In this document: positions 3,269-31,276 of the stretch, one piece after another
Position numbering within the stretch: position 1 is the first letter of the stretch
Layout: each line of letters opens with the position of its first letter
From: a virus
Lineage: Duplodnaviria > Heunggongvirae > Uroviricota > Caudoviricetes
Direction: 5' to 3' (one strand)
Length of the DNA: 31,276 nt
Virus record (IMG/VR): IMGVR_UViG_2534682222_000020
Location: 1 to 31,276 of that record
The notes under the pieces: model-generated
What the model saw: the letters and a program-made list of their open reading frames with translations, nothing else
The model's database searches: none
What the model was told of the DNA's origin: nothing
Position numbers and translations under genes: made by a program

Positions 3269-3784
3269 ATGGCTATTCCTAAGAAACTCCGCCTGTTCAC
3301 GATGTTTGTCGATGGCGACAACTACATCGGGAAAATACCCAGCGTCACGCTCCCGAAAATCACCCGTAAAACGGAAGATTACCAGGGTGGCGGTATGCTT
3401 GGCTCTGCTGCTGTTGATCTCGGCCTTGATTCAGGTGCACTGGATGCATCAATGATTGTTGGTGGCATGGTCGAGGAGCTGATCCTGAAATGGGGTGGGG
3501 ATATTGACGAACTACGCACGCGCTTTGTCGGTGAGATCTACAGCGGCGGTACAAGCTCCCTGCTTGAGGTCGAGATGCGCGGACGTATTACCGAAGTCGA
3601 CCAGGGCGAAGCCAAGCAAGGTGATGACACCAATCATACTTATGCGCTCAAAAATACGTATTACAAGCTGTCCGTGGATGACAAACCTCTGCTGGAAATC
3701 GACCTGCTGAACTTCATCTACAAGCGCAACGGTAAGAGCCTCTACCCGGATCGCATTGCGTCCGCTCTGGGCCTCGGCCAGTAA
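3269..3784 (+). CDS. FII: Tail tube protein FII
   Basis: 171 aa directly after FI stop (TAA 3266..3268) with GGGAGGTG RBS; size and position as P2 FII. Confidence 0.85.
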   Translation: MAIPKKLRLFTMFVDGDNYIGKIPSVTLPKITRKTEDYQGGGMLGSAAVDLGLDSGALDASMIVGGMVEELILKWGGDIDELRTRFVGEIYSGGTSSLLEVEMRGRITEVDQGEAKQGDDTNHTYALKNTYYKLSVDDKPLLEIDLLNFIYKRNGKSLYPDRIASALGLGQ

Positions 3785-3805
3785 CCTTTTTTAACCACTA
3801 CAAAT

Positions 3806-3824
3806 GGCGGCCAGTCTGGCCGCC
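3806..3824 (+). other. Intercistronic stem-loop between FII and E
   Basis: Seen: GGCGGCCAG-t-CTGGCCGCC, perfect 9-bp inverted repeat; no downstream T-tract. Confidence 0.4.
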
Positions 3825-3837
3825 CGGAGAAAGAATA

Positions 3838-4137
3838 ATGTCAGTAACTCTCAGCCAACCCATTAAACGCGGCGATCAGGAAATCAAATCCGTCTCAATC
3901 ACCGACACAATCAAGCAGGCTGGCTCACTGCGCGGGCTGCGTCTGGTTGATGTTCTCAACTTCGATTATGACGCGGTATCAACTCTGCTGACTCGCGTAA
4001 CCACGCCCCAGCTGACAACTGCCGATATTTCCTCAATGGCGACCGGCGACTTTACGGCCCTGTGCGAAGAAATCACGCCTTTTTTGACGAAAGCGGCGCC
4101 GTCCGCACCGAGCGAGGCGGCAACGGCGAGCAAGTAA
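3838..4137 (+). CDS. E: Tail assembly chaperone E
   Basis: 99 aa; position after tube gene and before tape measure; contains the slippery heptamer near its 3' end. Confidence 0.8.
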   Translation: MSVTLSQPIKRGDQEIKSVSITDTIKQAGSLRGLRLVDVLNFDYDAVSTLLTRVTTPQLTTADISSMATGDFTALCEEITPFLTKAAPSAPSEAATASK

Positions 4138-4310
4138 GAGAGGCAGTATTCAGCGATGTCGACGATCTGATCGCCGATATCGCTGTGATATTTCACTGGC
4201 CGCCCTCCGAAATGCACAGCATGGAGTTGCGCGAGCTGATGGCCTGGCGCGAACGGGCGGCCATCAGAAGCGGCAACCATGATAAGGAGGATGACGACGA
4301 TGGATCTTAG
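3838..4310 (+). CDS. E': E+E' fusion chaperone made by programmed -1 ribosomal frameshift
   Basis: Slippery heptamer T TTT TTG at 4080..4086 in the E frame (cct ttt ttg); the -1 frame continues open as FFDESGAVRTERGG... to a stop at 4308..4310, overlapping the T start. Same arrangement as P2 E/E'. Confidence 0.7.
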
Positions 4311-23514: not shown

Positions 23515-26154
23515 TCAATCCTGTCTTTTTCGTTTAGCCGCCTTCTTCCAGCGCGTGACCAGGTCACACACCGCCACGTATTCAGACGTCGGTTTATCTT
23601 TCTCACCGGCACGCCATGCCTTCACTTCCTGCAACCGGCCATTATTCATGGCGAGCAGTCCGCCGCCGTGGCGAACGCGGGCACCGCCAGCAATCGACCT
23701 CACAACATCATCGCTGACGAAAATCCTGCAACTACGCAGCTGCGCGCCGATGCTGGCGATGGTTTCCTGGCTGACCCCGCCTTGTTTCGCAGCCTCTCTT
23801 TTCTGTACCTGCCGCAGCGCCGCTTCGGCTTTTTTCTTCTGGTATTCCGCAACTGCGGCGGCATAGTTATCCGCACGCAGCTCCGCTTCGGTCCGCAGCT
23901 GTTGTCGCCAACGCTGTTCTGCCTCTTCTGGTGTCAGGCTCATATCTTTCGCTGCGGCCACTTTTGGCCCCCACGTCAACGCAGTTTCATCATCAACAGA
24001 CGTGCGCAGACCGCGCGCGGTACGCTCGAAGGCTTGATCTGAGCTTTCGCGGCCAAAGTTTTTCAGTCTGCTGGTGATTTCCTGCCGTTGCTGGCGTGAA
24101 TATCGGCGCAAATCTTCGATATTCAGCGGAAGTTCTGTCATCTGACTGTCCGGGTGATCAATACCGGCATGCATCGTCGGTTTTGACGGTGTGGTACCAG
24201 CTGGCACCGCCACTTTTAACGGTGGTTTTTCGTCCGTTCCGGAGCGCCCCGTACAGTTATTGACAGAACTCCGAGGGGCCGCTGCGCGGCCTTCTAAGGT
24301 CAAAATCTCGACCGGCGACGGCTTACGCTTCGGCACAATCTTGTAATCGGTGGTGCGGGTAAAAATGACTGATTCGCTGCCCGTATAAGGGCAATAAACG
24401 CCAGTAATTTTGGCGACCGTGTCCCCATAATCATTGCCATTTTCGGTGAATTCATAGTTAAGCCGAACGCGCAGGCAATCGCGCGCGACAAATGGCCCGC
24501 CCTGAGCGTTGGTGTATCCCGGCCAGTCTGGCGCATCGGCTGCTGCCCGTGCCGCTTCCAGTTCCGGATGTAATACCAGCTCGCGACTACCTAACCGGCG
24601 CAATTCGCGCCAAGTGGTAACGGGCGCACCGCCAATCTGCTGAAACTGGCGGATATTCCAGCGTGAAGCCCAGGCGCGTACACGCTTTGCCATCTCCCTG
24701 ACCGGCTGGCCTGACTCAAGATCCACTTCACCATCCATGCCGTAGCCATCGATGTTTTTCGAGATGTATTTCGCGATATAGCCTGTTGCAGACCCAAATT
24801 GCTCGTCCATCGGCGTAACAGTAAAACGGTGCTCTGAAGCACCTTTCTCGTTACCGTCCTCTTTCATGGCGTGTTTGCGGAAAATGGCTGTTGCATACTC
24901 TACTTCCTCAGGACGGAGGAAAAGCAACAGATGCCAGTGAGGGGTTCCATCGTGGTGAGGCTCTGCAACACGAAAACCAAACGTGCGAATACCTTCGCGA
25001 CTCCATTTGGCTCTGACGCGCGCCCAGACTTTGCAAAGGTATTTTTGCGTCTGACGCGGGCTGGCGTGCTGGTACTTATCGTTTCGTCTGCCTGACTGGA
25101 CATGTGTTGAGTGGTAACGCGACGGCGCTGTCAGCGTGTAGAACATGCCAACCAGCCCCATTTCATTCGCCATATCCTCAAACCCGCGCATGCGCACCAT
25201 CAGCTCATGCCGCGCGATCTTCGGGTTGGAAACACTACCCATCACCTTATCCAGTAATGAGCTGCGCTCGCCGGTGTCCTGGTCTTCCAGCTCCATCGCC
25301 TGAAGGAATTCGAAGTTCGCTTTTTTCTGCGCAACCCATTCCCTGAAGCATGGATCAGAGCAATATGGTGAAGCCACTTTGCTGACATAGCCGGTCGCGA
25401 TCATAAGATGTTCGCGCCAGCAGTCATGGATACGGCGGATTTTGTTAAGCCACCATTTTTCGGAATGAAGTCTGCCAGCGGCACGCAGCGCCTCGTCGGC
25501 GTCCAACTCTTCATCGCAATAACGCGCCCATCCGGGGATCGCGATATTGAGCGTCGCCGCCTTGCTCGCTATAGCCCCGTATGCGTAAATCGACGAAAAC
25601 TCAAGATCGGATGTTTGTTCATACTGAAAATCAAACTCGCGCATAAACTCGCTTTTCATCAAGTTCGCAAGCTTATACGCCAGTCTTTTCAGGCGCTTTT
25701 TGTCCGCCCACGGCAGCAGGTGAAATTCATCACGCAGCGGAAGAAGAAGCGCCGGGAGCGTACTTTGTGGGAGGTATTGCGCGTTAACCGCATCAACACG
25801 GCGTAAGACATGCCGCTCAAACGTACCGAACAGCCAACGCACGACGTCTTTTGGCTTGCTGCGTTCGAGGTTTTCAAGGTGCTGCGAGAAGCGCTTACGG
25901 ATAAACGCCGGGAGCGTTTGCACCCGGCGGCGGAGGTAGTTAGCGCGGCCATTTCGATCAAATGCCTCACGCGCATCGCCCTCGCGCGGGCGCAATGGCG
26001 CGCGGTATACCGTATCAACCAGATCACCATAAGCGAGCGCCCTGCGCTCGCCTTTCGGTGTCAGATACTCAATGGCTGAACTTTCGGTTTTATGGGGGTT
26101 GATGGCCTGCCGTTTGGTATTCCATTCCCATGCTAAGGCGGTGAGATCTGACAT
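23515..26154 (-). CDS. A: Replication initiation endonuclease A (rolling-circle, HUH type)
   Basis: 879 aa; HUH-like motif TPHWHLLLF and tyrosine region GYIAKYISK; AGGTGG RBS before ATG 26154; last large gene of the early operon. Confidence 0.85.
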   Translation of the reverse strand: MSDLTALAWEWNTKRQAINPHKTESSAIEYLTPKGERRALAYGDLVDTVYRAPLRPREGDAREAFDRNGRANYLRRRVQTLPAFIRKRFSQHLENLERSKPKDVVRWLFGTFERHVLRRVDAVNAQYLPQSTLPALLLPLRDEFHLLPWADKKRLKRLAYKLANLMKSEFMREFDFQYEQTSDLEFSSIYAYGAIASKAATLNIAIPGWARYCDEELDADEALRAAGRLHSEKWWLNKIRRIHDCWREHLMIATGYVSKVASPYCSDPCFREWVAQKKANFEFLQAMELEDQDTGERSSLLDKVMGSVSNPKIARHELMVRMRGFEDMANEMGLVGMFYTLTAPSRYHSTHVQSGRRNDKYQHASPRQTQKYLCKVWARVRAKWSREGIRTFGFRVAEPHHDGTPHWHLLLFLRPEEVEYATAIFRKHAMKEDGNEKGASEHRFTVTPMDEQFGSATGYIAKYISKNIDGYGMDGEVDLESGQPVREMAKRVRAWASRWNIRQFQQIGGAPVTTWRELRRLGSRELVLHPELEAARAAADAPDWPGYTNAQGGPFVARDCLRVRLNYEFTENGNDYGDTVAKITGVYCPYTGSESVIFTRTTDYKIVPKRKPSPVEILTLEGRAAAPRSSVNNCTGRSGTDEKPPLKVAVPAGTTPSKPTMHAGIDHPDSQMTELPLNIEDLRRYSRQQRQEITSRLKNFGRESSDQAFERTARGLRTSVDDETALTWGPKVAAAKDMSLTPEEAEQRWRQQLRTEAELRADNYAAAVAEYQKKKAEAALRQVQKREAAKQGGVSQETIASIGAQLRSCRIFVSDDVVRSIAGGARVRHGGGLLAMNNGRLQEVKAWRAGEKDKPTSEYVAVCDLVTRWKKAAKRKRQD

Positions 26155-29276: not shown

Positions 29277-29481
29277 ATTTTTCACCGCGCTTTAATCTAT
29301 CAATGGTCACCATTGCCTCTGCAAACGCAAAATCAATACCGAAATAGCAGCCGCCGTGCGTAATCTGATATCGCTGGCGGCTGTATGGTTTTTTGCGTGG
29401 GAGTTTCAGAATGGTAAAGCCACGGTAAAGGCTGGTTTTACTATTCAGCTGCGTCACCGCTCCGCCAAATCCACTTTTCAT
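29266..29481 (-). CDS. Small hypothetical early protein (71 aa)
   Basis: ORF 29266..29523; preferred ATG 29479..29481 (MKSGFGGAV...) with GGGAGGGGG RBS; first gene after cox. Confidence 0.45.
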   Translation of the reverse strand: MKSGFGGAVTQLNSKTSLYRGFTILKLPRKKPYSRQRYQITHGGCYFGIDFAFAEAMVTIDRLKRGEKYEA

Positions 29482-29507
29482 GTTCCCCCTCCCTGAAGCG
29501 GTTCGCA

Positions 29508-29780
29508 TTAAAGCCCCATCCACAACAACCAGGCATCACGCTGTTCTACCGGGCGGTTGTAATACGCCTCACGCACAGCACGATTGAACTCAGGGATGTA
29601 AACCCAGCGCTCACCGGCGCGTGCGTTCGGTTTGGTTGGGTCGCGCAGTTCAATCACTGGCAGCTTTCGGGCTTTGATCATTTCTTCTACTGCGGTCTTA
29701 GGTTTGCCGATCAGCTCGGCGAACTTCTCCACATGGACAGCATCAAGCGGATATTTGATTGCGTAATCGCTCGCTTCCAT
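29508..29780 (-). CDS. cox: Cox (excisionase and lysogeny-promoter repressor)
   Basis: 90 aa; FAELIGK..AV..MI...KLPVIE..DP....RAGE.WVY.P..N.......RP.E.RD.WL.W.GL matches recalled P2 Cox; divergent from C. Confidence 0.85.
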   Translation of the reverse strand: MEASDYAIKYPLDAVHVEKFAELIGKPKTAVEEMIKARKLPVIELRDPTKPNARAGERWVYIPEFNRAVREAYYNRPVEQRDAWLLWMGL

Positions 29781-29932
29781 CGTTCACGCTCCTGTTAGCT
29801 CGTGTTAATCTCGTAAGATCCAGCCCTTTCTAAACCGTTTGAAAACGTTCTAGCGGCTGGCTTTCACTCCTCGCAAGGTTCCATAAACGAACCTTGATGA
29901 GGCAAATCTAGTTCTAATTTGGAACTCTGTCA
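29781..29932. promoter_or_regulatory. Immunity switch region (expected face-to-face early and repressor promoters with operators)
   Basis: 152-bp AT-rich intergenic region between divergent cox and C; short inverted repeats gttc-N7-gaac (29911..29925), ggttc-N7-gaacc (29877..29893), and near-palindrome ctaaaccgtttgaaaacgttctag (29830..29853). Promoter hexamers not confidently assigned. Confidence 0.5.
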
Positions 29933-30226
29933 ATGACCTTTGAAGAGAAGCTAAAGCTGATCCGCAGTGCGGAAGAGATCAACCAAGCACAACTTTCTGA
30001 TATGACTGGAATTTCATTAAGTACGTTGAAGAAGATTGAGGCTGGGTATCACGATCCGGGCTGGAATGTTTTAAGCAAGATCACTCAACATCCCCGCTTT
30101 CAGAAATACACGCTATGGCTGATGACTGACAAAACCTCCCCGCAGGCTGGTCAGATTGCACCGGCCCTCGCGCACATTGGGCCAGACTCGCCGGAATCAG
30201 ACCAATCCGAGAAACAGACTGGCTAA
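29933..30226 (+). CDS. C: Immunity repressor C
   Basis: 97 aa; Q.T.P.F.KYTLW.MT....P..GQIAPALAH.G matches recalled P2 C repressor; followed by int on the same strand. Confidence 0.85.
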   Translation: MTFEEKLKLIRSAEEINQAQLSDMTGISLSTLKKIEAGYHDPGWNVLSKITQHPRFQKYTLWLMTDKTSPQAGQIAPALAHIGPDSPESDQSEKQTG

Positions 30227-30245
30227 CAGTTTATAAACATTACAT

Positions 30246-30274
30246 TTTCACTATTTGTTACCAAGATAGTGAAA
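30246..30274 (+). other. Perfect 9-bp inverted repeat between C and int
   Basis: Seen: tttcactat-ttgttaccaag-atagtgaaa; 21 nt upstream of the int ATG; no T-tract. Confidence 0.4.
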
Positions 30275-30295
30275 TCTGCGCCGGAGGGCTTTCTT

Positions 30296-31276
30296 ATGTC
30301 GATTAAGAAGCTCGATGATGGTCGCTACATGGTGGACATTAGACCGCGCGGGGCAGCAGGACGCCGCATCCGCAAGACGTTTGACAGAAAGGCAGAAGCT
30401 ACCGCGTTTGAGCAATACACGATAGCGAACGCCAGCCAAAAAGAATGGGCTGGTAAGCGCGCCGACCGGCGGCCTTTAAGTGAGTTGCTCGATGCCTGGT
30501 GGCGGTATCACGGGCAAAACCATGAAAACGGCAAAAAGGAATTCAATCACCTTTTGAAAACAATAAGTGGCCTCGGCGATCCCGCCGTTAGCCGGTTAAG
30601 CAAAAGGGATTTAATGGATTACCGCTCAAGCCGTTTGAATGCCGGGATCAAGGCATCAACGATTAATCGCGAGATGTACCGATTATCCGGCATGTTTACG
30701 AAGTTAATACAGATAGAGGAATTTAGCGGGCAACACCCTGTTAACGGGCTTCCACCACTGGCGGAAGAAAACCCGGAAATGACATTCCTGGAGCGGGAAG
30801 AGATCAACAGTTTGCTGAGCGTGCTGGAGGGGGATTATCTGTTAGTTGCCCTACTGTGCCTGAGCACCGGCGGAAGATGGTCAGAGGTCGCCACGCTTAA
30901 GCGGTCGAATATCGTTAACTGCCGCGTCACGTTCCTGAAGACCAAGAACGGGAAAAAGCGAACGGTGCCGATCTCTGAAGAGCTGGAAAACAAGGTGAAA
31001 AAAGAGGCCAGCGGGAAGCTGTTCAAAGTGGATTATGAAAGGTTCTGCAAGATACTGCGGGCGGTGAAGCCGGATATTCCGGAAAACCAGGCAACACACA
31101 TCCTGCGACACACCTTTGCAAGCCATTTCATGATGAACGGCGGGAATATTATCGCACTGCAACAGATTCTGGGACATGCGAATATTCAGCAAACGATGGT
31201 CTATGCGCACCTGTCGCCTGACTACCTGCAAAACGCGGTTACACTGAATCCATTGCAGGGAGGAATTGCGGCATAA
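30296..31276 (+). CDS. int: Tyrosine integrase (P2 Int family)
   Basis: ORF 30269..31276; preferred ATG 30296 (MSIKKLDDGRYMVDIRP) with GGAGGG RBS; C-terminal catalytic region HILRHTFASHFMMNGGNI...LGHANIQQTMVYAHL with the nucleophilic Tyr; stop at 31274..31276. Confidence 0.9.
   Translation: MSIKKLDDGRYMVDIRPRGAAGRRIRKTFDRKAEATAFEQYTIANASQKEWAGKRADRRPLSELLDAWWRYHGQNHENGKKEFNHLLKTISGLGDPAVSRLSKRDLMDYRSSRLNAGIKASTINREMYRLSGMFTKLIQIEEFSGQHPVNGLPPLAEENPEMTFLEREEINSLLSVLEGDYLLVALLCLSTGGRWSEVATLKRSNIVNCRVTFLKTKNGKKRTVPISEELENKVKKEASGKLFKVDYERFCKILRAVKPDIPENQATHILRHTFASHFMMNGGNIIALQQILGHANIQQTMVYAHLSPDYLQNAVTLNPLQGGIAA

Follow-up and report, generated by a model that had tools for sequence, protein, structure and literature searches.

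P2 is a long-studied model of non-inducible lysogeny. Its int gene follows C in the Pc operon, like the one described here, and is reportedly under post-transcriptional control, a finding said to be that of Yu, Barreiro and Haggard-Ljungquist (1994, J Virol 68:4220). A passage of PMC11789052 cites that work among viral proteins controlled by binding to their own mRNA.

The switches of P2 and WPhi have a small C protein (about 100 aa, with an N-terminal HTH) and a divergent Phage_Cox protein. The gene order is cox, reading leftward, followed by C and int, both reading rightward, and the −35 element of the early promoter, Pe, overlaps the C start codon. In WPhi, one repressor site is within the spacer of Pe and the other is downstream, about three helical turns away (PMC1904263, PMC3448106), with O1 and O2 being 34 nt apart centre to centre (PMC1904263). 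The operators of both phages are non-palindromic direct repeats, GTTTAGAT in P2, 22 nt apart, and TATTGGTGAC in WPhi, 34 nt apart (PMC1904263).

Programmed −1 frameshifting, as in dnaX, IS elements and genes for tail chaperones (P2 E/E′ among them), involves a conserved −1 ORF that lacks a start codon, and yields a minor trans-frame product with a new C-terminus in fixed ratio to the main product. Coupling by overlapping stop and start codons occurs in many bacterial and phage operons. The arrangements are ATGA, TGATG or a stop a few nucleotides past the start. The locus described here shares the layout of the P2 and WPhi switches. It also has a conserved −1 frame, without a start codon, that leads from C to the int AUG and ends there, and a minor trans-frame product of the kind just described is predicted from it.

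The control region and its candidate operators

The window (the whole stretch of 31,276 nucleotides that was analysed) ends in a lysis/lysogeny control region with the order cox, C, int, the first divergent from the other two, as identified from the ORF list and Pfam. First in the early operon is cox (29508–29780, minus strand), encoding a Cox family repressor/excisionase (PF10743 Phage_Cox, E 1.5e-26) whose homologue in near-identical E. coli prophages is annotated as a Cox family protein. The immunity repressor gene C (29933–30226, plus strand) encodes 97 aa with an HTH_3 domain, and int (30296–31276, plus strand) a tyrosine integrase of 326 aa with Int_N and Phage_integrase domains. The int stop codon is the end of the window. 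An E. coli prophage beside cpxP is 98.9% identical to the region, while Int is 99% identical to that of a Yokenella regensburgei prophage (L005) and about 82% identical to those of a group of E. coli-type relatives. DNA identity of the region (C tail, Int) to P2, WPhi and relatives is 69–77%. The tail of C can be aligned to that of P2 and WPhi C. However, the alignments show the N-terminal half of C and the operators to be specific to this immunity type, which is another one than those of P2 and WPhi. The interval is the control region of a P2-like (Peduovirus) prophage of an immunity type so far uncharacterised. That it contains an immunity switch, as the initial annotation had it, is borne out by C and Cox being of P2 type and by Pe, found by consensus, with the layout being as in WPhi. 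The length given there for the gap between cox and C, 152 bp, is also what the gene coordinates yield (29781–29932). No match to Rfam covariance models was found in 29400–30500 at E up to 1.

A consensus scan of 29700–30400 finds Pe (29905–29933, minus strand) as the sole sigma-70-like site, with 10 of 12 matches: −35 TTGACA (29933–28), a 17-nt spacer and −10 TAGATT (29910–05). Its −35 overlaps the C start codon, and that of WPhi does likewise. The lysogenic promoter, Pc, is placed by alignment to the WPhi promoter feature (AJ245959) and would have its −10, GTTAAT, at 29804–29809 on the plus strand; this position comes solely from WPhi homology, the consensus scan misses Pc and its −35 is poor. 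The Pc transcript would start near 29816–17. Pe and Pc would then face each other within the 152-bp gap, the left half of which would be the Pc/Cox side.

The motif GTTC-N7-GAAC occurs exactly twice in the window, with both occurrences being in the 152-bp gap (0.39 are expected for the whole window). O1, the dyad GTTCTAATTTGGAAC (29911–29925), is between the −35 and −10 of Pe. O2 (29874–29896), found by the motif and by alignment to WPhi O2, is downstream of the Pe start, and its dyad (29878–92) is nested in a perfect 8-bp inverted repeat, CAAGGTTC/GAACCTTG (29874–81/29889–96). The two are 33 bp apart centre to centre, about three helical turns, and in the alignment their positions match those of WPhi O1 and O2. 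The 15-nt pair 29878–92/29911–25 is 73% complementary; by hand count O1 matches O2 at 11 of 15 positions when inverted and at 9 of 15 directly. Both dyads are kept in three diverged lineages of the same C type, with C proteins 74–80% identical, though their inner 7 nt and flanks differ, and other C types have different repeats at the same two positions. The two dyads are very probably the C operators, as judged from sequence comparison, and C would repress Pe through these two 15-bp sites, one in the spacer and one past the start. While the operators of P2 and WPhi are direct repeats without palindromic symmetry, each site here is itself a palindrome. Direct-repeat operators describe the two characterised members and may not be a feature that defines the family. 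If the assignment holds, the immunity specificity is a new one, with a repressor of P2 type that acts at palindromes.

Several short inverted repeats in the gap had been put forward as candidate operator half-sites. The two GTTC-N7-GAAC dyads, conserved and the only two matches in the window, fit that description. A further repeat (29813–25/29855–67, 77%) does not, for its core, CCAGCC (29820–25) and GGCTGG (29855–60) with a 29-nt loop (29820–29860, plus strand), covaries. At least nine variants in other P2-like switches stay complementary at the same place, among them CCAACC/GGTTGG, CCAGACC/GGTCTGG, TCCAGCG/CGCTGGA, CCAGTCCCT/AGGGACTGG, GCCAACCGC/GCGGTTGGC and CAGCCGCC/GGCGGCTG. With its covarying arms, the repeat behaves as a base-paired stem and not as a sequence-specific site. 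Its fold has −12.1 kcal/mol here and −20.5 (z −3.7) in WPhi. With Pc placed as above, the stem would be 3–4 nt from the 5′ end of the C-int mRNA. The Cox-side half of the gap is common to phages with different C types. It has two direct repeats, AAACCGTTT and AAAACGTTC, 10 bp apart (29832–29850), which are candidate Cox boxes only; they would sit in the loop of the covarying stem. One relative (L195) has three GAAnCGTTTA units spaced by 10–11 bp. Cox and Apl bind direct repeats spaced by one helical turn (PMC3936717, PMC7498355).

A reading frame bridging C and int

C and int are on the same strand 69 nt apart, and scanning finds neither promoter-like nor terminator-like sites between them. 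With no promoter of its own, int would be read from the Pc transcript. Rather than being empty, the stretch between them is crossed by a third reading frame, which the initial annotation did not notice. This is the −1 frame of C, which is open from 30130 and has a conserved part (30178–30306, plus strand), WARLAGIRPIRETDWLTVYKHYIFTICYQDSEICAGGLSYVD, that overlaps the end of C and contains the whole of the inverted repeat discussed below. It has two invariant UGG codons (30178–80 and 30220–22), and its stop, UAA (30304–06), is 8 nt into int.

Junctions between C and int of P2 type were compared in a set chosen without bias, 104 distinct ones in all. None of them, that of P2 included, has a stop in this frame between the end of C and int, three apparent exceptions being mis-hits of the motif; of shuffled spacers, about 20% are open. 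The frame ends at +8 in 90 junctions, at ATGA in 10 and at UGAUG in 1 (which includes P2). Substitutions in the spacer, counted along the edges of a minimum spanning tree, are distributed 46/29/77 over the three codon positions of the bridging frame (152 in all; chi-square p 8e-6), and the synonymous share is 44% in this frame but 22% and 25% in the other two. Indels in the spacer are in multiples of three only. The frame thus has a coding-type substitution pattern and is conserved, and its translation is probable on these comparative grounds.

The comparison extends back into C. Both UGG codons are invariant, while the overlapping C codons, all of which end in T, stand for 6–7 different residues. 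No junction of 145 has a stop from one UGG to the other, yet 26 junctions have one immediately before the first. The synonymous share of changes in the C frame falls from 87% to 36% in the tail of C, and in one pair of relatives (L131 against L129) a change synonymous in the bridging frame makes a premature stop in C and is tolerated. However, the synonymous fractions of the two frames in the C tail are similar (36% and 38%), which makes translation of the overlapped part less secure than that of the spacer part. The peptide belongs to no Pfam family and is essentially absent from protein sets of 5.8 billion and 1.84 billion sequences, and in the literature searched there was no mention of a reading frame bridging C and int.

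Other origins for the pattern were considered and rejected. An antisense ORF does not account for the periodicity, as 75 of 77 sequences have an antisense stop at Leu(+1), CTA/TTA, and clades such as L013 use CTA, TTA and TCA as spacer codons. A read-through C-Int fusion is excluded as a general feature: about 90% of junctions have C and int in one phase, and the window has no stop in the spacer in that phase, but only about half of all junctions are open in this way. A bypass like that of T4 gene 60, from GGC-UAA to GAG-GGC, is contradicted by the coding-type substitutions within the would-be gap. Two seemingly natural in-frame fusions of C to the peptide (P0001, P0003) are from single Logan contigs with C, cox or int likewise broken by indels, and are discounted; another candidate (P0002) is a 59-aa NCBI ORF with a chance ATG.

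How would ribosomes enter the frame? In 139 of 143 junctions it has no ATG, GTG or TTG before the second UGG, and since there is no start codon they would have to come from the C frame by a −1 shift. As in programmed −1 frameshifting, junction comparison reveals a conserved −1 ORF that lacks a start and extends past the 0-frame stop. Unlike in those cases, there is no slippery X XXY YYZ and no stimulatory structure 5–9 nt downstream. No such heptamer is in 30175–30226 or in the homologous stretch of other clades, RNAalifold finds no structure common to all clades (40 diverse sequences), and the hairpin between C and int is more than 60 nt downstream of the putative entry point. The most likely entry would be a non-canonical −1 shift at the invariant NNU-GGG (30175–80), where U-GGG-C are the only invariant nucleotides, with perhaps a second entry point at NNU-GGY-stop (30217–26). 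The lack of a start codon, of a heptamer and of a shared structure leaves the entry step without known mechanistic precedent at sequences such as these, and we put entry by a −1 shift from C a little short of an even chance.

Downstream, the int Shine Dalgarno sequence GGAGGG (30283–88) is strong and well placed, with 7-nt spacing, but it is paired. Folding and comparison reveal an initiation hairpin (30282–30317, plus strand) in which this sequence and the AUG (30296) pair with int codons 3–8. The pairs are 30286–91/30308–13, 30293–96/30304–07 and 30282–83/30316–17. In 68 distinct sequences 87.6% of cells are paired, as against 24–55% with partners slid, and five pairs have compensatory changes. 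[A further, long-range pairing of GCCCUC (30164–69) with the int Shine Dalgarno is possible in the window but has no support across clades.] In the proposed mechanism, int would be translated mainly by ribosomes that arrive in the bridging frame, open the initiation hairpin and, after termination, begin anew at the int AUG close by. Through such coupling, Int synthesis would depend on a small part of C translation. The stop/start geometry is that of coupled operons. What differs is the upstream partner, no ordinary gene but a frame without a start codon that overlaps at least the last 15 codons of C in another phase. The balance tips slightly towards int being translationally coupled to the bridging frame, and the frame probably sets the amount of integrase made. 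Independent initiation of int, once the initiation hairpin has opened spontaneously, is conceivable.

The C-int hairpin and competing explanations

A perfect 9-bp inverted repeat was described just upstream of the int ribosome binding site, and it is there: TTTCACTAT/ATAGTGAAA at 30246–54/30266–74 has arms separated by 11 nt, and its end is 8 nt short of the Shine Dalgarno GGAGGG. The window has 41 inverted repeats of at least 9 nt within 25 nt, and in itself this one is not beyond chance. As RNA it extends to an 11-bp hairpin (30246–56/30264–74, plus strand; the whole 30246–30274) with the 7-nt loop GUUACCA and a fold of −10.7 kcal/mol (z −4.9; 0 of 200 shuffles as stable). It is this fold, its retention in relatives and one covarying pair that set it above chance. 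The hairpin is kept in 26–52 distinct relatives, and 89.9% of cells are paired as against 39–56% with partners slid. Its conservation is confined to the E. coli/Salmonella/Kosakonia/Citrobacter clade. Serratia, Yersinia, Xenorhabdus, Morganella and other clades lack it though they retain the bridging frame. A universal spacer hairpin was considered and rejected, as the mean z over 45 spacer representatives is only −0.8.

The hairpin most likely would slow or limit the flow of ribosomes toward int, or else be the element through which the known control of int after transcription acts. That it has a function at all is an evenly balanced proposition. The pairing could be incidental, with the sequence held by the bridging codons, IFTICYQD(S/G)E, or by some other constraint. 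Conservation of the hairpin sequence could indeed be owed largely to the overlapped codons. Clades in which YIFTICYQD is kept together with ACA and GATGA.. (L011, L012, L021) lose the pairing, the number of comparable repeats and the mean z just given fit a functionless repeat, and the covariation is of one pair only (UA in 31, CG in 15, UG in 4), possibly from a single event. Changes that break a pair (AC in 7 sequences, AA in 2, CC/CT in 4) represent about four independent events. Against this stand the z values of −4.9 here and −4.1 in WPhi, and the UA/CG exchange combines a synonymous change in one arm with a Ser/Gly change in the other. Third positions that could change synonymously are near-invariant within the stem, while five of six upstream third positions vary. 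The P2 spacer has a different and unrelated hairpin of similar strength, and in other clades a small covarying hairpin, GAUGA..UCAUC or GACG..CGUC, is just 5′ of the Shine Dalgarno. A functionless pairing is on this evidence unlikely, though to be taken seriously.

Also unlikely, and slightly more so, is that the bridging frame is not translated, its conservation reflecting a constraint on the RNA (binding of Int to the C-int mRNA, or its folding), with int initiating independently from its strong Shine Dalgarno. The missing start codon and canonical frameshift signal are in keeping with this, as are the lack of a Pfam family and the near-absence of the peptide from protein sets. For P2 Int, moreover, an action on the mRNA that encodes it has been reported (Yu et al. 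1994, as cited in a passage of PMC11789052). However, constraints on RNA do not predict indels solely in multiples of three, nor an excess of third-position synonymous changes in exactly one frame. In addition, the spacers of the 104 junctions are not alignable and yet none has a stop in this frame, and the stop always overlaps the int start in one of the three classical coupling geometries. Translation of the bridging frame remains the preferred reading.

The initial annotation offered the repeat as a possible attenuator of int or a protein-binding site. As a DNA site it could be a distal C operator comparable to 186 FL/FR, or a site for Cox, Int or IHF. Its dyad symmetry is perfect, and like FL/FR it is a few hundred bp from the main operators and near the repressor gene; 186 CI uses distal operators, according to a passage of PMC1904263. 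The WPhi version, ATGGTGAA, has TGGTGA in common with the WPhi operator half-site TATTGGTGAC, but this likeness is a coincidence: P2, WPhi and the present phage share the repeat and not the operators. Unlike FL/FR, the repeat does not resemble the operators of its own phage, TTTCACTAT being different from GTTC-N7-GAAC, and it is unchanged in heteroimmune phages with different C and Cox specificities. Nothing similar to the consensus of P2-type Int arm sites, tgTGGaCa (PMC3448106), is inside the hairpin; in relatives (L002, L003, L005) the arm repeats, TGTCCACA, occur twice just past int. No match to WATCAANNNNTTR was seen by eye on either strand of the spacer. Allowing up to one mismatch, TTTCACTAT occurs 8 times in the window, no enrichment over the 4.6 expected, and the U-G intermediates fit pairing in RNA and not a palindrome in DNA. 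A protein-bound dyad is thus very improbable.

Attenuation in the sense of a transcriptional terminator that lowers read-through from C to int, for which the capacity to form a stem-loop of moderate stability between the genes of one operon might speak, is hardly credible, as the stem is A/U-rich with two G-C pairs in 11, is followed by UCUGCGCC with no U run, is in a frame that evolves as coding sequence, and a scan of 29700–30400 finds no intrinsic terminator. The hairpin is neither terminator nor DNA operator. A post-transcriptional role in int expression is the part of the attenuation proposal that stays plausible. By analogy with P2 int control, the initiation hairpin and the spacer hairpin would be natural candidates for the RNA target of such control.

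Implications for P2-type phages

The best overall explanation for the region combines an operator switch, a bridging frame that couples int to C translation, and an RNA hairpin, and to this combination we give about an even chance. Its extension to the family is more tentative, and we would put it below even: all P2-type phages may carry a −1 segment of about 40–55 codons, without a start, that bridges C and int and is entered by a −1 shift at NNU-GGN (UGG = Trp), giving a repressor variant and fixing Int to a small fraction of C, with tuning by hairpins. If so, there would be a minor trans-frame repressor variant in which the DNA-binding domain of C has a new tail rich in W and aromatic residues. 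Ribosomes would be delivered to an int start that is otherwise occluded, Int synthesis would be firmly tied to a small part of that of C, and clade-specific spacer hairpins would tune the flow. Should ribosomes indeed enter by such a shift at U-GGN, recoding signals would prove more varied than is known so far.

For prophage annotation, the gap between C and int in Peduovirus should not be treated as non-coding, and in engineering P2-type integrase cassettes the bridging frame and the initiation hairpin should be kept in mind. How P2 keeps its integrase low, and proportioned to the repressor, from one promoter is to our knowledge understood only in part. With a conserved frame between C and int there would be a concrete and directly testable mechanism for this, and a second repressor isoform is possible as well.

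The P2-type switch and its candidate operators

The final 1.8 kb of the window comprises three genes: cox (29508-29780, minus strand; Pfam Phage_Cox), the immunity repressor gene C (29933-30226; HTH_3) and the integrase gene int (30296-31276; Int_N/Phage_integrase), whose stop codon is the window end so that the att site lies outside. By gene content, Pfam matches, DNA identity to P2, WPhi and other Peduoviruses (69-77%) and relatives adjoining cpxP (3/3 E. coli relatives examined), this is the lysis/lysogeny control region of a P2-like prophage and, as initially annotated, an ordinary P2-type immunity switch with a 152-bp cox-C gap. A prophage of E. coli PCP06171 has 98.9% DNA identity to it, and Int is 99% identical to that of Yokenella regensburgei ATCC 49455. 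In three related loci (L002:4879-4935, L003 and L005:3479-3535) two direct repeats of TGTCCACA, the P2-type Int arm consensus, are directly 3′ of the int stop, within an inverted repeat CCCCGGAGTG..CACTCCGGG that is followed by cpxP. Another, L004:3382-4290 (E. coli CUVET19-1426), has a cox-C gap longer by ~750 bp with two annotated hypothetical genes (3502-3684, plus; 3681-4139, minus), and the extra DNA looks like an insertion within the switch region itself. The very start of the window has a perfect 11-bp inverted repeat, ATTGTGCGGCC/GGCCGCACAAT (3-34), and a terminator-like hairpin, AAAACCCCGCA/TGCGGGGTTTT, is at 461-484.

The sole sigma-70-like site found on scanning 29700-30400 is the early promoter, Pe (minus strand; −35 TTGACA 29933-28, 17-nt spacer, −10 TAGATT 29910-05), whose −35 overlaps the C start codon, as it does in WPhi. 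GTTC-N7-GAAC has two matches in the entire window, one within the Pe spacer (29911-25) and the other just downstream of the Pe start (29878-92). Their centres are 33 bp apart, the geometry of the WPhi repressor sites O1 and O2 (34 nt; PMC1904263), though each site is palindromic and unlike those of P2 (GTTTAGAT) and WPhi (TATTGGTGAC). From sequence comparison these dyads are very probably the C operators, the main argument being the comparative data across C types. Prophages with C 74-80% identical have the presumed recognition region, S(L/V)STLKK(I/V)E, in common and keep both dyads, with differing inner seven bases and flanks; with other C types these two positions hold different repeats, of either direct or inverted orientation. 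When aligned with E. coli C236-04A, the region shows a mosaic break near 29870, left of which the gap is common and right of which the gap and the C N-terminus change together.

Because phages of differing C type share the left half of the gap, that half is assigned to the Pc/Cox side, Pc being the lysogenic promoter. It contains direct repeats AAACCGTTT and AAAACGTTC, 10 bp apart (three such units in one relative), which are candidate Cox boxes since direct repeats spaced by a helical turn are what Cox and Apl recognise (PMC3936717, PMC7498355). CCAGCC (29820-25) and GGCTGG (29855-60) flank them on either side. Counterparts at the same place in other switches include CCAACC/GGTTGG, CCAGACC/GGTCTGG, CCAGTCCCT/AGGGACTGG, GCCAACCGC/GCGGTTGGC and CAGCCGCC/GGCGGCTG, and this retention of complementarity but not of sequence points to base pairing. 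The predicted fold is −12.1 kcal/mol in the window and −20.5 (z −3.7) in WPhi. From alignment with the WPhi promoter feature we infer a Pc start near 29816, which would make the stem (29820-60) the 5′-terminal stem-loop of the C-int mRNA. The gap does contain several inverted repeats, as first noticed, and the suggestion that they are operator half-sites was largely right: it holds for the two GTTC-N7-GAAC dyads, but CCAGCC/GGCTGG behaves as a base-paired stem.

A conserved frame bridging C and int

When the sequence 5′ of int was aligned over 160 loci, the spacer proved to be open in the −1 phase of C. In the window this bridging frame (QNLPAGWSDCTGPRAHWARLAGIRPIRETDWLTVYKHYIFTICYQDSEICAGGLSYVD, 30130-30306) has its stop 8 nt after the int ATG. 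Among 104 distinct junctions, chosen solely for a GQIAP-type C upstream of int, it runs uninterrupted between the C stop and int in 101, ending at +8 in 90, as ATGA in 10 and as UGAUG in 1; shuffled spacers are open in ~20% of cases. The remaining three are mis-hits in Providencia loci with two tandem C-like genes, and the L033 and L158 lineages do show the frame. (In L033, L052 and L158 the proximal of these genes upstream of int ends early, ..AIAHNGLMKII, and the bridging frame continues.) P2 itself has the frame, with a UGAUG ending that overlaps the int AUG; the frame closes there with a basic tail (..PPRKKRLVVAKKHTTRRVF).

Several features are those of coding evolution. Spacer length varies among clades in steps of three nucleotides only. 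Of 152 substitutions counted in the spacer along the minimum-spanning-tree edges that join close relatives, the split over bridging-frame codon positions 1/2/3 is 46/29/77 (p 8e-6), with 44% synonymous in that frame and 22% and 25% in the other two. The peptide has the motif W-A-R-x-x-N-(I/L/V)-x-P-(L/I)-R-x-x-(D/N)-W-L-(T/D/N)-(I/L/V)-(Y/H)-x-x-(Y/F), and its two Trp codons never vary; the overlapping codons of C stand for six or seven different residues and have T as their last base throughout. A stop immediately precedes the first UGG in 26 junctions, and there is none between the two UGGs in 145. In the body of C, 87% of substitutions are synonymous in the C frame; over its last 15 codons 36% are synonymous in the C frame and 38% in the −1 frame. 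The invariant UGGs, the stop distribution and these C-tail fractions indicate that constraint shifts away from the C frame and toward the −1 frame at ~30178. In several lineages the C frame stops prematurely with the −1 frame intact, and in L131, relative to L129, the mutation behind the premature stop leaves the −1-frame amino acid unchanged.

No Pfam family matches the peptide. Searches of 5.8 billion clustered proteins and 1.84 billion representatives yielded only two fusions, discounted since their Logan contigs are indel-ridden, and one 59-aa NCBI ORF, whose ATG arises by chance. Full-text searches, with subscription-era P2 papers (where an old mention is possible) outside their scope, found no report of a C-int bridging frame or of frameshifting in C. 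The SecM arrest motif is W....GIRAGP, and the start of the window peptide, WARLAGIRP.. (30178-30204), loosely resembles it; other clades have W-A-R-x-x-N-(I/L/V)-x-P-(L/I)-R there. A regulatory nascent peptide is conceivable.

C and int of the window share a phase with one stop codon between them and an open in-phase spacer, QFINITFSLFVTKIVKSAPEGFL-M... (30224-30295), so that read-through of UAA 30224-26 would yield a C-Int fusion. Only about half of all junctions keep the in-phase spacer open, so the arrangement is probably not selected.

Hairpins between C and int

The int Shine Dalgarno sequence GGAGGG and the AUG pair with int codons 3-8. In a set of 68 distinct sequences the pairing holds in 87.6% of cells, against 24-55% with partners slid, a control that somewhat favours the hairpin, which was derived from one of the 68. 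Five of its pairs have compensatory changes, e.g. GGGCGC/GCGCUU in Providencia-type sequences.

Farther 5′, within the bridging frame and 22 nt upstream of the int AUG, the reported 9-bp inverted repeat is perfect and exactly at 30246-54/30266-74. Taken alone it is unremarkable, being one of 41 inverted repeats of that size within 25 nt in the window, yet its local fold is unusual (−10.7 kcal/mol, z −4.9) and its sequence is conserved. At the RNA level the hairpin has an 11-bp stem and a 7-nt loop. Pairing is 89.9% of cells, against 39-56% with slid partners, in 26 distinct E. coli/Salmonella/Kosakonia/Citrobacter-clade sequences. At one pair, 52 distinct sequences have UA (31), CG (15), UG (4) or AA (2); a GAT to GAC change costs 7 sequences a pair, and other single changes yield U-G or improve a U-G pair. 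The repeat is missing in Serratia, Yersinia, Xenorhabdus and other clades. In several other clades the bases immediately 5′ of the Shine Dalgarno form a short hairpin, GAUGA..UCAUC (or GACG..CGUC). P2, whose spacer is longer (115 nt), has an unrelated 8-bp G+C-rich hairpin, UGGUGGCU-N7-AGCCACCA (L247:1030-1052, NC_001895 ~25529-25551; −12.5 kcal/mol, z −3.5), and over 45 representatives the mean spacer-fold z is only −0.8.

The proposal that the repeat binds a protein fares poorly: it is identical in heteroimmune phages (the window, WPhi, L007-type and others) and unlike both the window operators, which speaks against a C operator, and the TGTCCACA Int arm repeats just past int in relatives. 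Nor is it a transcription terminator or attenuator, the latter role having also been suggested: its stem is rich in A and U and lacks a following U run, and a scan found no terminators; no Rfam family matched. We read it as a real, clade-specific RNA element, with modest support, and consider the chances that it has a function about even.

A possible route to Int synthesis

Translational coupling is proposed because the int start is occluded, the upstream frame always terminates on or beside it, and that frame is coding-like: ribosomes translating the bridging frame would melt the int initiation hairpin, stop, and then reinitiate on the int AUG. In 139/143 junctions none of ATG, GTG and TTG occurs in the frame upstream of the second UGG, so ribosomes would reach it from the C frame by a −1 shift. 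For 30175-30226 and homologous positions chance would give such absence in about a quarter (a rough estimate); internal starts may be selected against, or their absence may follow from C-frame constraints. Since stops are tolerated up to the first UGG but never beyond, entry would be at NNU-GGG (30175-80), with the second NNU-GGY-stop a possible further entry point. No slippery heptamer or common stimulatory structure for a −1 shift was found. This step, which we infer and which is without known precedent, is the weakest link; speculatively, UGG could be decoded out of phase, re-using the wobble U of the P-site codon. The C-int hairpin could be a brake on ribosome flow toward int, or a handle for a regulator; PMC11789052 lists Yu et al. 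1994 with viral proteins whose control works through binding to their own mRNA.

The interest of the region is thus the conserved bridging frame together with the occluded int start, with which the control of Int synthesis across the P2 family becomes directly testable.
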